This document shows positions 38,483 through 53,964 of a DNA stretch of 64,000 nt, piece after piece (position 1 is the first letter of the stretch; every line of letters begins with the position of its first letter). Under the pieces are notes generated by a model, which saw only the letters and a program-made list of their open reading frames with translations, was not told the origin of the DNA and ran no database searches. The translations under genes and the position numbers were made by a program. This DNA is from an uncultured Bacilli bacterium (lineage in GTDB: Bacteria > Bacillota_I > Bacilli_A > RF39 > UBA660). The stretch lies in assembly GCA_934122395.1 (NCBI GenBank), contig CAKOWQ010000001.1, forward strand, positions 125,602 to 189,601, read 5' to 3'.

Positions 38483-38510
38483 AAAAATAAAAGAGACTTT
38501 TATGTCTCTT
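38483..38510 (-). terminator. Intrinsic terminator of tyrS
   Basis: agagac-ttttat-gtctct hairpin plus U run on the minus strand. Identical hairpin reused at 42246–42263. Confidence 0.65.
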
Positions 38511-40268: not shown

Positions 40269-41999
40269 TTATGAATTTAAAGTTTCGTTTTTATATAAGT
40301 TTTGATAAATTTTACTAGTTTCTAACAATTGATTATGAGTACCTGATGCTACTACTTTACCTTTATCTACAACATGAATTATATCAGCATCTATTATAGT
40401 AGATAAACGGTGTGCTACTATTACTACAGTATGATCTTTTACTAAATTATCTATTGACTTTTTTATACATTCTTGTGACTCATTATCAAGTGCACTTGTC
40501 GCTTCATCAAATAAGATAATTTTACTCTTTTTAGACAATGTTCTTGCTATAGATAATCGCTGCTTTTGACCTCCTGATAAATTAACACCACCTTCGCCTA
40601 AGGTAGTATCATACTTATTAGGAAGAGACATAATATAGTCATCAATGTAAGCTGTTTTAGCATATTTTCTTATTTCTTTTATAGTTATTTTATCATTTAT
40701 TAATTTAAAGTTTTCTTTTATACTTTTATTAAAAATAAATGGTTCTTGTCTTATTATTGAAATATGCTTTCTTAGCTCTTCTTCGCTCAATTCAGTTATA
40801 TCTATATTATCTATTGTAATATTACCACTATTTACATCAAATATTCGAGTGATCAAGTTGAATAAAGTTGATTTACCTTGTCCAGACTTTCCTACAATAG
40901 CAACCTTTTTATTTGGTTCTATTGATAGATTAAATTTATTTAATGTAACGTCTTCGTCTGGATATGCAAATGTCACATCTTTAAATTTGATATTTCCTTT
41001 TATGTTTTCTATTTTTTTATAACCAAATTTTTCATCATTATATAATCTATTTTCTAATATATCATTGACTCTACTAATTGATACTACTGTCTTTTGATAA
41101 GTTTGAGTTAGATCGTTCATTTCTTCTATTAACCACATATATCTATAAACATAATAAGTCATAGAGATGAAAAACGTTAACGAAATCATTTTATAATAAA
41201 GCAATATTAAGCAAGTAATAAATACGCCAACTTCCAATATTGATTTTATAAATCTAGTTATAATGTTAAATTGTTTTTGAATATCTATTTCTTTTTCTGA
41301 CTTGTTATAAATAACTTTAATTATTTCAGTCATATCTTTTATTAAATTTGATTTAATTCCTAATGTTTTTATTTCTCGTATACCTCTAATTGATTCTGTT
41401 ACTAATGATGTAAATTTATCTTGCTCTTCTTTTCTTTCTTTGTGTACTTCTTTTAACTTTGGATTATACTTTCTAATTATTGAAAATAGTATTAACACAA
41501 TTATTATTATTTCTAATCCTACTATCCAAGAATTCAAAAATACGTATACTATTATAATTAAAGATGCTACCAAAGAAGAAAACATATTTAATAGTTTTCC
41601 AAAAGCAAAGCTTAAGGAATCAGCATCATTAGTAATTCGATTAATAATTTCACCTGACGATTTTTTTTCAAATGCTACAGCAGGCAAATCTAATGCTTTT
41701 TTATAAGAGAAAAATCCCAACTTTCTTGTTAAGGAACTTTCTACTTTGTATAACATAGATTTTGCTATATGAAGTAATGAACCGCCAAGCGTTAATTCAA
41801 TTATAAAATAAATCATTAAAAAAATAATTGCTTTTTTTAATTGTAAATTAGTAATAGCTTCTACTGCTGCTCCATTTAAGTATCCAGTAAAAATTTCGGC
41901 TATTCCTGATAAAAATATAAGAATACTTGCTATTATTAATCTTCTTTTATCGTTTCCTATTAATTTAATTAGAGGTATGAATTCTTTTAAACTCTTCAT
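40269..41999 (-). CDS. ABC transporter, fused permease/ATP-binding type I exporter (MsbA/LmrA/Sav1866-like)
   Basis: 576 aa. Six-TM N-terminal domain. Walker A GKSGQGKST, signature LSGGQKQRLSIAR, Walker B ILFDEATSALD. Confidence 0.9.
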   Translation of the reverse strand: MKSLKEFIPLIKLIGNDKRRLIIASILIFLSGIAEIFTGYLNGAAVEAITNLQLKKAIIFLMIYFIIELTLGGSLLHIAKSMLYKVESSLTRKLGFFSYKKALDLPAVAFEKKSSGEIINRITNDADSLSFAFGKLLNMFSSLVASLIIIVYVFLNSWIVGLEIIIIVLILFSIIRKYNPKLKEVHKERKEEQDKFTSLVTESIRGIREIKTLGIKSNLIKDMTEIIKVIYNKSEKEIDIQKQFNIITRFIKSILEVGVFITCLILLYYKMISLTFFISMTYYVYRYMWLIEEMNDLTQTYQKTVVSISRVNDILENRLYNDEKFGYKKIENIKGNIKFKDVTFAYPDEDVTLNKFNLSIEPNKKVAIVGKSGQGKSTLFNLITRIFDVNSGNITIDNIDITELSEEELRKHISIIRQEPFIFNKSIKENFKLINDKITIKEIRKYAKTAYIDDYIMSLPNKYDTTLGEGGVNLSGGQKQRLSIARTLSKKSKIILFDEATSALDNESQECIKKSIDNLVKDHTVVIVAHRLSTIIDADIIHVVDKGKVVASGTHNQLLETSKIYQNLYKNETLNS

Positions 42000-42010
42000 A
42001 ATACCTCCAC

Positions 42011-42040
42011 AAAAAAAACCACTTCTTTTTGAAAAGTGGC
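42011..42040 (-). terminator. Leader terminator (attenuator hairpin) upstream of the ABC exporter
   Basis: Minus strand: GCCACTTTTCAAAAAGAAGTGG plus U8, 8-bp stem. Ends ~10 nt before the RBS GGAGG of the exporter. Confidence 0.6.
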
Positions 42041-42060
42041 TCTATAAATTCTTTATAAGA

Positions 42061-42147
42061 CTAAGCGAAAAAACAAAGAAGTTTCTCCACTTTCTTATTA
42101 TAAACCAACTTTTCTTCATTAAAAACTCTAAAATTAAACTTCTTCAT
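42061..42147 (-). CDS. Putative leader peptide (28 aa) of the ABC exporter attenuator
   Basis: RBS AAAGGAG. MKKFNFRVFNEEKLVYNKKVEKLLCFFA. Lies between the promoter and the leader terminator. Confidence 0.5.
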   Translation of the reverse strand: MKKFNFRVFNEEKLVYNKKVEKLLCFFA

Positions 42148-42179
42148 TTTTTCACTCCTTTCACTTTAAATTCAACATC

Positions 42180-42208
42180 ATCATACCACGCATATATTTA
42201 TGTGTCAA
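42180..42208 (-). promoter_or_regulatory. Sigma-A promoter for the leader and ABC exporter
   Basis: Minus strand: TTGACA, 17 nt, TGgTATGAT (extended -10). Confidence 0.55.
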
Positions 42209-42235: not shown

Positions 42236-42263
42236 ACAAAATAAAAGAGACTTTTATGTCTCT
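42236..42263 (-). terminator. Intrinsic terminator of spoIVB-like gene
   Basis: Same agagac-ttttat-gtctct hairpin plus U run as downstream of tyrS. Confidence 0.6.
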
Positions 42264-43249
42264 TAATTTTCTCCTTCTTCTAGCATTGTAGTGATAAAGA
42301 TTCCATATCCTTTTTCATTATCATTTACAATAGCGTGAGTAACTGCTCCTATCAATTTATTGTTTTGTACAATAGGACTTCCACTCATTCCTTTAATTAC
42401 ACCATTAGTTTTATTAAGTAATTCTTTATCTGTAATTTCAAATAAGATGTTTTTTGTTTTAGTACTAGTATTAATCTTTAAAATATTAATAGAATATTCT
42501 TCAATCTTATTATCTTTTAATACAGTTAGTATCTTAGCTTCACCAGGGACTATTTCGTTAGGAGACGCAACTTCTATTAAATTATTCGTATTAAATTCAC
42601 TAGTATATGTTCCAAAAATACCGCTTATTGTATTTTCTTTTATATTACCATATACTATTCCCTTATTAAAAATTGCGTTCTTTTCACCAGTAGTAGTTCT
42701 ATCACTTTTAGTTGTTCCTGTAACATCAGATTTAAAGATTTTACCATCTTTTACTTCTATTTTCTGATTAGTATTAGCTTCTATTATTTCATGTCCAAGT
42801 GCTCCATATATTTTAGTTTCAGGGTCAATATAAGTTAATGTACCTATACCAGTAATTTCATCTTTAACGTATAGTCCGGTTTTATATACATCATTATTAT
42901 CACGTACTAAATCCAGTGTAACAGGTATTTCTCTATTACCTCTTGAGATAGTCATTTTTACTTTTGAATCTTTAATATTCTTATTAATTGCTGTAACCAT
43001 ATCACTGATTGAATAAACATTGGTATTAGAAACTCTAATTATTTTATCTCCTATTTCTATACCTGAATTCTTCCCAATATAAGAATCATTTACCTTGTAG
43101 AATCCTACAACCATTATACCTTTGGAATTAACCTCAATTCCGATGTTTTGTCCACCTAAGACAACTTTATTTGAATAAGCATAAGTAGATGTAGGAATTA
43201 CTAGTAAAAGAAGTGAGAAAAAAGTAAGTAGTTTATGTTTAAAATTCAT
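42263..43249 (-). CDS. spoIVB: SpoIVB peptidase (S55) with PDZ domain
   Basis: 328 aa. Signal peptide, PDZ, catalytic Ser motif GMSGSPI. Confidence 0.8.
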   Translation of the reverse strand: MNFKHKLLTFFSLLLLVIPTSTYAYSNKVVLGGQNIGIEVNSKGIMVVGFYKVNDSYIGKNSGIEIGDKIIRVSNTNVYSISDMVTAINKNIKDSKVKMTISRGNREIPVTLDLVRDNNDVYKTGLYVKDEITGIGTLTYIDPETKIYGALGHEIIEANTNQKIEVKDGKIFKSDVTGTTKSDRTTTGEKNAIFNKGIVYGNIKENTISGIFGTYTSEFNTNNLIEVASPNEIVPGEAKILTVLKDNKIEEYSINILKINTSTKTKNILFEITDKELLNKTNGVIKGMSGSPIVQNNKLIGAVTHAIVNDNEKGYGIFITTMLEEGEN

Positions 43250-43319: not shown

Positions 43320-43541
43320 TTATTCTGCTTTAAAATCTTCTAATGTTCCATCTTTATTTAGTATTTTATTTACGCTTTCTTCGGCATTATTTAGTTTGTC
43401 ATTACAAATTTTGGCAATTTTCATTGCTTCATTAAATTTTGTAATAGCATCATCCAACGGAACGTTACCACTTTCTAAATCTTTAACAATTGTTTCTAAT
43501 TCAGTTAAAGATTCTTCAAAACTTTTTTCTTTAGTTGCCAT
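43320..43541 (-). CDS. xseB: Exodeoxyribonuclease VII small subunit
   Basis: MATKEKSFEESLTELETIVKDLESGNVPLDD is XseB-like. Start chosen at the internal Met of the track ORF. Confidence 0.8.
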   Translation of the reverse strand: MATKEKSFEESLTELETIVKDLESGNVPLDDAITKFNEAMKIAKICNDKLNNAEESVNKILNKDGTLEDFKAE

Positions 43542-43779
43542 TTGGTCTACCACCTTTATTAAATTCATTTCTTATTAAGTTTTCACCACTAGAATTCATT
43601 ATTTGTTTTGATAATTGACGGTCCATTTTAATTTTACTAAATGGATTATTTGCAGTAGGCATTTTATTAATTCCACCTATATTAGTAGGTGTTTTATTAA
43701 TTCCTCCAATATTATTTGGTCTATTAGGAATACCTGCAATATTTCTATTACCAAAACCGTTCATACCATTATTAAACAT
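43531..43779 (-). CDS. Small Asn/Gly-rich tandem-repeat protein
   Basis: RBS AGGAGG overlapping the xseA stop. Decapeptide repeats NIGGINK(T/M)PT encoded by ~30-nt tandem DNA repeats. Overlaps the xseB start by 11 nt, so it is translationally coupled. Confidence 0.55.
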   Translation of the reverse strand: MFNNGMNGFGNRNIAGIPNRPNNIGGINKTPTNIGGINKMPTANNPFSKIKMDRQLSKQIMNSSGENLIRNEFNKGGRPNGN

Positions 43780-48944: not shown

Positions 48945-49103
48945 TTTTTTACCTCCTTTATATATTTCTAGACTCGCTTTTAAGGTAACAATTACTTGTT
49001 TTATAACCTAATCAATGCGGTTTGAGCTATAAAGGCTACAAACAAGAAGATTTTATCATAATTATTTACCCAAGTCAATAAAAAAAGACTATTATAGCCT
49101 TTC

Positions 49104-53795: not shown

Positions 53796-53879
53796 TGGTG
53801 CGGGTAACAGGAGTTGAACCTGCATGCCTAAGGCGCTAGATCCTAAGTCTAGTGCGTCTGCCAATTCCGCCATACCCGC
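53796..53879 (-). tRNA. tRNA-Leu (anticodon TAG), class II with long variable arm
   Basis: Reverse complement GCGGGTATGGCGGAATTGGCAGACGCACTAGACTTAGGATCTAGCGCCTTAGGCATGCAGGTTCAACTCCTGTTACCCGCACCA. Cloverleaf with encoded CCA. Confidence 0.8.
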
Positions 53880-53887
53880 AAAATAAA

Positions 53888-53964
53888 TGGTGGACCCTAT
53901 AGGACTCGAACCTATGACCGTCCGGTTATGAGCCGGATGCTCTAACCAACTGAGCTAAGGGTCC
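53888..53964 (-). tRNA. tRNA with CAT anticodon, most like tRNA-Ile2 (lysidine) / tRNA-Met
   Basis: Reverse complement GGACCCTTAGCTCAGTTGGTTAGAGCATCCGGCTCATAACCGGACGGTCATAGGTTCGAGTCCTATAGGGTCCACCA. Closely resembles Bacillus tRNA-Ile(LAU). Confidence 0.8.

Follow-up and report, generated by a model that had tools for sequence, protein, structure and literature searches.

A putative ribosome-dependent transcription attenuator upstream of an ABC exporter gene in uncultured RF39-like gut Bacilli

The DNA described here (the window) is a stretch of 64,000 nucleotides (nt) from an uncultured Bacilli bacterium (RF39; UBA660; assembly GCA_934122395.1, contig CAKOWQ010000001.1), a gut bacterium of an RF39-like Bacilli lineage; all coordinates are those of the window. 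On its minus strand, the gene for an ATP-binding cassette (ABC) exporter is preceded by a leader with its own promoter, a small open reading frame (ORF) and an intrinsic terminator. This leader is probably a ribosome-dependent transcription attenuator that gates the monocistronic exporter gene, and it would act kinetically, by reporting the position of a ribosome on the leader ORF. The promoter-leader-terminator arrangement exceeds chance, because it recurs before orthologous exporters in about 100 distinct leaders. The leader combines a short ORF under selection and with its own Shine-Dalgarno sequence (SD), an intrinsic terminator, and an antiterminator that overlaps the ORF and shares a strand with the terminator, which are three features of leader-ORF attenuators.

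The leader and its relatives

The elements of the leader and the gene that follows it are listed below in the order of transcription.

42208-42180, minus strand: sigma-70-type promoter, comprising TTGACA (42208-42203), a 17-nt spacer and the extended -10 element TGgTATGAT (TG at 42188-42187, TATGAT at 42185-42180)
42173, minus strand: G, predicted transcription start site, placed solely by its spacing from the promoter
42173-42164, minus strand: conserved 5' box, GAAUUUAAAG, where the mRNA is predicted to begin
42161-42155, minus strand: leader SD, AAAGGAG, 7 nt ahead of the AUG
42147-42061, minus strand: leader ORF, from ATG at 42147 to TAG at 42063-42061, 28 codons plus stop, predicted product MKKFNFRVFNEEKLVYNKKVEKLLCFFA
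42048-42011, minus strand: intrinsic terminator, comprising the 5' arm D (42048-42031), the 3' arm E (42030-42015) and U8 (42018-42011)
42008-42004, minus strand: exporter SD, GGAGG
41999-40269, minus strand: ABC exporter gene (ATG at 41999), 576 amino acids, fused transmembrane and nucleotide-binding domains (TMD-NBD), type IV/ABCB-like half-transporter

A preliminary description of this DNA had placed the promoter, ribosome-binding site, 28-codon ORF, terminator with U8, GGAGG and exporter ATG in this order on the minus strand, and each of them was found where it had been placed; only the distance of about 10 nt given between GGAGG and the ATG was loose, the ATG beginning 5 nt past the end of GGAGG. 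The promoter matches the consensus at 11 of 12 positions and ranks second among 45 promoter-like sites in the 6 kb scanned, and the 5' box occurs once in the window, with 0 copies expected. The terminator hairpin (42043-42015; -12.0 kcal/mol) has an 8-bp core (CCACUUUU/AGAAGUGG) that is extendable to 12 bp, and begins 18 nt downstream of the stop codon of the leader ORF; five terminator-like sites were found in 6 kb, compared with 1.0 expected from shuffles. The exporter SD lies outside the hairpins. As a whole, the leader (196 nt) folds at -42.3 kcal/mol (z = -3.6), and none of 200 shuffled sequences was as stable.

No known RNA or peptide family accounts for the leader in the searches made. 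Against Rfam 15, the best matches overlapping the leader region at E values up to 10 reached at most about 21 bits, compared with thresholds of 41-52 bits, and a search of the whole window at gathering score returned nothing relevant to the leader; an NCBIfam scan with the 28-residue leader peptide gave no match.

Relatives were collected as two sets. For the genome set, one genome per species was scanned, which gave 80 loci with exporter orthologues (44-98% identity), all from uncultured gut metagenome-assembled genomes (MAGs) labelled as 'Bacilli' or Tenericutes (e.g. Acholeplasma sp. CAG:878 and Mycoplasma sp. CAG:877); the leader is present before the exporter orthologue at 51 of these 80 loci. 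For the metagenome set, an exact-match scan with the 5' box gave 73 loci, 70 of them with enough downstream sequence, and an exporter orthologue was found 140-200 nt downstream of the 5' box in all 70. No copy of the leader was found before any other gene (window plus 153 loci). The 51 genome leaders follow a common plan, i.e. a TTGACA / TGNTATNAT promoter 6 nt upstream of the conserved GAATTT, the 5' box GAAUUUrArG, the SD in the context AAAGGAGUGAGAAnAUG, which is kept across leaders, a short ORF, and a terminator, which the scan for hairpin plus U-tract placed 16-30 nt ahead of the exporter ATG at most orthologous loci. In an alignment of the leaders (A1; MAFFT), the 5' box is near-invariant and the exporter GGAGG invariant.

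The leader ORFs were anchored on the conserved SD and AUG, as the longest-ORF rule picks wrong ORFs at several loci (those of L005, L008 and L049 were set by hand). In all 51 genome leaders, AT-rich as they are, the frame that starts at the conserved AUG runs for 18 codons or more before a stop (median 28 codons); the median in the frame +2 control is 4 open codons. The range across the family is 18-40 codons, and all 55 distinct metagenome leaders have an ORF of 24-35 codons. Stop codons have a frequency near 10%, and from base composition alone the probability of 24 codons staying open is 0.08. The peptides, on the other hand, are not conserved: little is common to the 99 distinct sequences beyond positions 4 and 6, which tend to be F or L, and a C-terminus encoded by U-rich RNA. 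Since the ORF is open everywhere and the peptides share little, selection maintains the length and position of the ORF and not a particular peptide. The macrolide '+x+' arrest motif was considered as a candidate and rejected; [KR]x[KR] occurs within residues 2-9 of only 18 of the 99 peptides and is absent from that of the window.

The placement of the stop codon relative to the RNA helices described below is variable, from inside the terminator to 40 nt before the 3' strand of helix P1, whereas the start region and the antiterminator strand keep constant positions among the leaders; occupancy of the start region by an early ribosome is therefore most likely the variable that the leader reads.

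At four loci (L025, L088, L091 and L118), the promoter, ORF and P1 are kept and no terminator was recognised by the scan; two of these (L025 and L088) retain the antiterminator strand and the terminator 5' arm, with the 3' arm apparently lost. These four may be constitutively read-through alleles and could act as natural controls. In a clade of rabbit-gut MAGs (L020-L024, L026, L028-L032 and L035; 54-57% identity), the exporter orthologues have no leader and follow unrelated upstream genes, and the attenuator has thus been gained or lost within the exporter family.

Competing helices and ribosome position

The RNA segments that take part in the predicted alternative structures, in addition to terminator arms D and E, are as follows.

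42158-42136, minus strand: segment A, P1 5' strand, comprising the leader SD, spacer, AUG and codons 2-4
42117-42099, minus strand: segment B1, GAAGAAAAGUUGGUUUAUA, codons 11-16, antiterminator 5' strand, with the terminator 5' arm D as partner
42096-42082, minus strand: segment C1, AAGAAAGUGGAGAAA, a mimic of the SD region, whose local pairing with C2 forms the antiterminator apex
42084-42063, minus strand: segment C2, AAACUUCUUUGUUUUUUCGCUU, last codons of the ORF, 3' strand of either P1 or the apical hairpin
42120-42031, minus strand: full antiterminator domain, with B1:D as outer, AUAAG/CUUAU as middle and C1:C2 as apical helix

Folding for an alternative pairing between the leader ORF and the terminator 5' arm had been suggested as a check in the preliminary description; such an antiterminator exists, and it covaries across relatives. 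The B1:D duplex has -13.8 kcal/mol in the window, and the homologous ORF segment in relatives, often AUGGUAGU, is complementary to the terminator arm of its own leader in each case (e.g. AUGAUAGU with ACUAUCAU, AUGGUAGUUU with AAACUACCAU, and GAUGACCU with AGGUCAUC). For the genome leaders, the cognate pairing energy is -8.3 kcal/mol, compared with -4.5 kcal/mol when the ORF interiors are shuffled (p = 2.5e-14); the independent metagenome set gave -9.7 compared with -5.7 kcal/mol (p = 6e-10), with the antiterminator strand starting at codon 13 (interquartile range 12.5-14). In the antiterminator columns of a MAFFT alignment that was not fitted to structure, 85% of the cells are paired, compared with 31-64% when the partners are slid; both sides have changed in seven of nine pairs, and none of 500 shuffles scored as high.

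A helix that the preliminary description did not contain, P1, is formed by the leader SD, AUG and first codons (segment A) with the 3' end of the ORF (segment C2), and it is modelled here as the anti-antiterminator. The A:C2 duplex has -26.1 kcal/mol in the window; across leaders, the mean is -19.4 kcal/mol for cognate partners and -12.7 kcal/mol for divergent non-cognate partners (p = 7e-10). RNAalifold on the plain MAFFT alignment returned 15 P1 pairs, seven of them with compensatory changes. In P1, 90.7% of the cells are paired, compared with 54-60% with the partners slid, and 0 of 500 shuffles reached either the observed paired percentage or the covariation score. Inside the P1 loop, both length and sequence vary, and no junction or bulge is conserved. 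The 3' strand is conserved as U-rich (CUUCUUUGUUUUUUC), and C2 of the window contains the TTNTTT-type motifs TTCTTT and TTGTTT.

When C2 is not engaged in P1, it can close the apex of the antiterminator by pairing with C1 (-12.8 kcal/mol); the C1:C2 score in the window is -8.5, compared with -3.4 for shuffled sequence, and none of 100 shuffles was as good. The complete antiterminator domain folds at -26 kcal/mol (z = -4.05), with none of 200 shuffles as stable. With the start region free, P1 plus terminator amount to about -38 kcal/mol, compared with -26 kcal/mol for the antiterminator; with the start region masked, the antiterminator (-26 kcal/mol) is balanced against C1:C2 plus terminator (about -25 kcal/mol). 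In alignment A1, the terminator 3' arm and C2 of L005, L008 and L016 are misaligned, which leaves terminator pairs uncounted, and RNAalifold on A1 did not return the terminator.

Several other candidate pairings were set aside. The SD mimic in C1 is ruled out as a universal feature, as it is found in many leaders and is absent from many distant ones. An alternative antiterminator of the window that uses C1 (AAAGUGG/CCACUUU, -10.2 kcal/mol) is possible, but B1 is the homologous segment and pairs more strongly. Pairing of AAAGUG in the 5' untranslated region with arm D, and of the GAAUUU box with a second GAAUUUA just upstream of D, were both unseen in the other leaders checked by eye and were treated as chance.

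A further, weak AU-rich helix, P0, may pair the 5' box with codons 3-7 (42135-42126) and would hold the SD and AUG in its loop (cognate -4.1 compared with -2.8 kcal/mol shuffled, p = 3e-4); it was noted with loci L011, L015, L019, L027, L036, L056 and L062, with apparent compensatory changes (GAAUUUGAA with UCAAAUUU, and CGAAUUAUAAA with UUAUAAUUC). From its position, P0 could serve as a stabiliser of the 5' end or as a standby element.

The effect of a ribosome was modelled by folding with a 27-nt ribosome footprint imposed, either on the full leader or on transcripts ending before the terminator 3' arm. For window transcripts of the latter kind, the antiterminator is predicted when the ribosomal peptidyl site (P-site) is on codons 1-7 or 22-28, and it is not predicted when the P-site is on codons 8-21. 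Transcripts of the same kind were folded for 43 non-redundant leaders across the family, and pairing of the ORF interior with the terminator 5' arm had the following probabilities:

P-site on codons 1-4: 0.86
P-site on codons 11-16: 0.18
no ribosome: 0.54 (mean)

The proposed mechanism would start with a strong constitutive promoter that yields a leader of about 165 nt with the 28-codon ORF, and the choice among three mutually exclusive helices in this leader would either halt RNA polymerase at the U8 terminator, 12 nt ahead of the exporter ATG, or let it pass. With no ribosome on the leader, P1 would form and strip C2 from the antiterminator domain, and transcription would terminate. During normal elongation, a ribosome over codons 8-21 would mask the antiterminator strand while the terminator is being made, and termination would again follow. 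A ribosome halted on the AUG or within the first few codons, on the other hand, would block P1 and leave codons 11-16 free, and the free antiterminator strand would capture the terminator 5' arm before the 3' arm is transcribed, so that polymerase reads through and the exporter is transcribed. In this model, the natural inducers are most likely translation inhibitors that arrest initiation or early elongation; induction of the pump by antibiotics is a prediction.

A set of observations weighs against this mechanism. With the full terminator present, the equilibrium probability of the terminator is at least 0.87 at every ribosome position; equilibrium folding thus never disfavours the terminator, which rules out a switch based on thermodynamics alone and leaves a kinetic one, and read-through in the model hinges on the kinetic order of folding. 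Without a ribosome, the antiterminator is still predicted in about half of the leaders, so P1 is not a universal off-switch in silico, and the exclusion of B:D by P1 (the two would otherwise form a pseudoknot) enters the model as an assumption. The antiterminator would likewise be permitted by a ribosome that has reached the stop codon (codons 22-28), so that the off state requires RNA polymerase to stay ahead of the ribosome. Finally, no conserved arrest motif was found among the 99 leader peptides.

A more specific reading is possible and is offered tentatively. The leader might be a timer that is independent of peptide sequence and is set by the first ribosome loaded: the pump would be switched on only if a co-transcriptionally loaded ribosome stays at or before about codon 7, and efflux would then be induced by inhibitors of initiation or early elongation in general, regardless of their chemistry and with no need of an arrest peptide, family-wide in the RF39-like Bacilli, an abundant gut lineage. 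Loading of a ribosome would be required for switching on, because the leader SD and AUG form one strand of the anti-antiterminator.

The exporter, known attenuators and alternative explanations

The exporter carries an N-terminal six-transmembrane domain (ABC_membrane, PF00664; E = 2e-26) and an ATPase domain (ABC_tran, PF00005; E = 2e-32) with canonical motifs (Walker A, GKSGQGKST; signature, LSGGQ; Walker B, ILFDE; and H-loop). A single fused TMD-NBD gene with canonical ATPase motifs fits a homodimer-type exporter and not a BmrC/BmrD-like pair. Matches in the PDB include ABCB1, MsbA, BmrA and YheI, and the best solved-structure match of the TMD is Bacillus subtilis YheI/BmrC, a weak one (E = 1.3e-11, 47.7 bits). 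None of the curated NCBIfam cut-offs (MsbA, SmdAB, Tet(46), CydDC and bacteriocin exporters) was reached, the best score being 349 bits for MsbA_lipidA, compared with a cut-off of 602 bits, and no C39 peptidase domain was found on the exporter (Pfam).

The leader is classed as working like the vmlR and bmrB attenuators, is non-homologous to them and is a member of neither named system; its closest analogue by layout and logic appears to be vmlR, and by target bmrB-bmrCD. In vmlR, the upstream ORF (uORF) lies inside the anti-antiterminator SL-1, and an initiating ribosome stalled by lincomycin or retapamulin prevents SL-1, so that an antiterminator with an apical pause hairpin forms (PMC9226507). 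The two leaders have in common a three-helix logic with the start of the uORF within the anti-antiterminator, a ribosome held at the uORF start that blocks this helix (as predicted here) and lets an antiterminator with an apical hairpin override an intrinsic terminator, and U-rich motifs of the TTNTTT type near the apical hairpin. In the B. subtilis vmlR leader, motifs of this kind cause NusG-dependent pausing (PMC9226507), and a pause at C2 would, by analogy, leave time for a ribosome to load. At the sequence level, the two leaders have no detectable relationship. The vmlR uORF has 3 codons, compared with 28 here (18-40 in the family); unlike in vmlR, the ORF spans the antiterminator strand, so that an elongating ribosome can mask this strand, and the SD lies inside a helix and not in a single-stranded region. 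The target of vmlR control is a soluble ABC-F ribosome-protection factor, whereas the target here is a membrane exporter (PF00664).

The preliminary description had proposed attenuation by ribosome stalling on the model of bmrB-bmrCD. Ribosome-stalling attenuation of an ABC exporter agrees with the architecture and with the comparative evidence (the open ORF and the covarying antiterminator), whereas a bmrB-like layout does not hold. The bmrB leader mediates ribosome-dependent attenuation of a multidrug-resistance ABC exporter; it starts at a GTG, is 53 codons long and contains all three structures within its ORF, and it controls the two-gene heterodimer BmrCD (PMC4191407). Common to both are a translated leader ORF (predicted here), the set of anti-antiterminator, antiterminator and terminator, and a type IV, multidrug-type ABC exporter as target. 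In the leader of the window, in contrast, the ORF has 28 codons and the terminator lies past its stop, the exporter is one gene with canonical motifs, and no equivalent of the AbrB-type growth-phase layer of bmrCD is evident.

The likeness to other systems is more general. In the erm, cat, msrD and tlrB (yxjB) leaders (reviewed in PMC4191407 and PMC9226507), as is predicted here, a short uORF senses drug-stalled ribosomes and the downstream mRNA is remodelled; most of these depend on a sequence-specific arrest peptide, whereas the peptide is unconserved here, and many of them unmask an SD and so act on translation, whereas the output here is transcription termination. The trp and his attenuators of Escherichia coli likewise have competing 1:2, 2:3 and 3:4 helices that are read by ribosome position; they contain runs of regulatory codons, of which there are none here, and the segment that corresponds to '1' contains the leader SD and AUG here. 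Tight coupling of transcription to translation, moreover, is not expected in a Firmicute-type lineage such as that of the window.

Four alternative explanations were weighed. The same RNA switch might report general translational capacity (nutrient limitation, stationary phase, (p)ppGpp or a shortage of ribosomes), which would make the exporter a stress- or starvation-induced pump. The sensor does seem generic, with 99 different peptides and no common arrest motif, the predicted decision depends on ribosome position alone, the exporter stays below the cut-off of every curated drug-resistance family, and bmrCD is also under growth-phase control (PMC4191407). However, the characterised Firmicute attenuators bmrB (PMC4191407) and vmlR (PMC9226507) answer to ribosome-targeting drugs, and if initiation were slow and no ribosome bound, P1 and hence termination should be favoured; we consider this explanation unlikely.

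Much less probable still is a riboregulator that binds a ligand or protein (a riboswitch or protein-mediated antitermination), to which the ORF would be incidental. The conserved 5' sequence, the long conserved helix and the fold z-scores (-3.6 for the leader, -4.05 for the antiterminator domain) would suit such an element, but there is no Rfam family match even at E values up to 10, the loop interior of P1 is variable and lacks a conserved junction or bulge, and an untranslated element would have no need of an ORF that about 100 of about 100 leaders keep open against a stop-codon frequency near 10%.

An amino-acid or charged-tRNA attenuator of the trp/his/phe-leader type, in which a shortage of Phe, Asn or Lys would hold the ribosome at the corresponding codons in the early part of the ORF, is highly improbable. 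F (12%), K (11%) and N (10%) are frequent in the peptides, and F or L stands at position 4 in 68 and at position 6 in 48 of the 99 sequences, but this is the composition encoded by AU-rich RNA, and no conserved run of one regulatory codon was found in the 99 peptides. The regulated gene is an exporter and not a biosynthetic operon, and a T-box precedes the tyrosyl-tRNA synthetase gene tyrS of the host merely 2 kb away; this genome thus handles aminoacyl-tRNA sensing by T-box control and not by leader-peptide control.

A function of the encoded micropeptide itself (as exported signal, bacteriocin-like peptide or accessory subunit), with the terminator setting the ratio of peptide to pump, is equally improbable: a small ORF immediately before an ABC exporter, in constant co-occurrence, invites this explanation, but the peptide is unconserved and follows RNA pairing constraints, the exporter has no C39 peptidase domain and no double-glycine leader was seen in the peptide, and a simple partial terminator would have no use for the pairing of mid-ORF codons with the terminator arm, on which selection clearly acts. 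Attenuation by a ribosome on the leader ORF remains the preferred explanation.

Gene neighbourhood and implications

The surroundings of the leader are given below in minus-strand order.

upstream, minus-strand order: xseA, xseB and the gene for an S55 peptidase of the SpoIVB type, with a terminator behind it
after the S55 peptidase terminator, minus strand: promoter-leader-exporter unit, closed by a terminator-like hairpin
40268-40244, minus strand: this terminator-like hairpin with T-run, right after the exporter stop codon, GATAGTTTAATTACTATC followed by T7
39970-39784, minus strand: T-box leader (94.4 bits, gathering score 93), preceding tyrS
about 39743-38547, minus strand: tyrS (tyrosyl-tRNA synthetase), directly downstream of the exporter unit and followed by a terminator
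beyond the tyrS terminator, minus-strand order: consensus promoter and hrcA-grpE-dnaK

The exporter unit is regarded as monocistronic, because the terminator-like hairpin stands immediately 3' of the exporter and is followed by the T-box-tyrS unit. This hairpin was read from the sequence; it has fewer than three G-C pairs and is hence unlisted by the terminator scan.

A perfect 27-nt direct repeat (AAAATAAAAGAGACTTTTATGTCTCTT, plus strand) is found at 38484-38510 and 42238-42264. The two copies, 3754 bp apart, are the terminators after tyrS and after the S55 peptidase gene, and they flank exactly the block of promoter, leader, exporter, T-box and tyrS; the repeat may be a footprint of insertion or duplication of this block.

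The SpoIVB-type S55 peptidase (42263-43249, minus strand) has a PDZ domain and adjoins xseA/xseB. Sporulation is not expected in this small-genome gut Bacilli lineage, whose members are labelled Acholeplasma or Mycoplasma sp. CAG, and the sporulation-type protease therefore looks out of place in the host. An ORF for 82 amino acids between xseA and xseB (43531-43779, minus strand), which shares about 38 nt with the start of xseB (43320-43568), had no Pfam match. Elsewhere in the window, a ribosomal protein L21 leader marginally above its gathering score (36.4 compared with 36) and two neighbouring tRNA genes were recorded, reported with the positions 48960-49032 and 53799-53964 (both minus strand).

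Leader-ORF attenuators are the main known route to inducible resistance in Gram-positive bacteria; to our knowledge, bmrB-bmrCD (PMC4191407) is the only attenuator of a membrane ABC exporter that has been dissected experimentally. The leader described here adds an independent example from outside Rfam, i.e. a known type of control in a new lineage of uncultured, small-genome gut Bacilli, and its approximately 100 natural sequence variants provide covariation support for both P1 and the antiterminator.

If the leader proves unresponsive to translation inhibitors, it still offers a clean natural data set on an attenuator that is programmed by the position of an ORF and not by the sequence of a peptide. 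If it is responsive, it would be a compact RNA part for sensing ribosome arrest independently of a specific peptide, and the exporter family would be a candidate drug-responsive pump in commensals of the human and animal gut. Should the tentative timer reading also be true, these commensals would possess broad, drug-inducible efflux that is invisible to catalogues of resistance genes.

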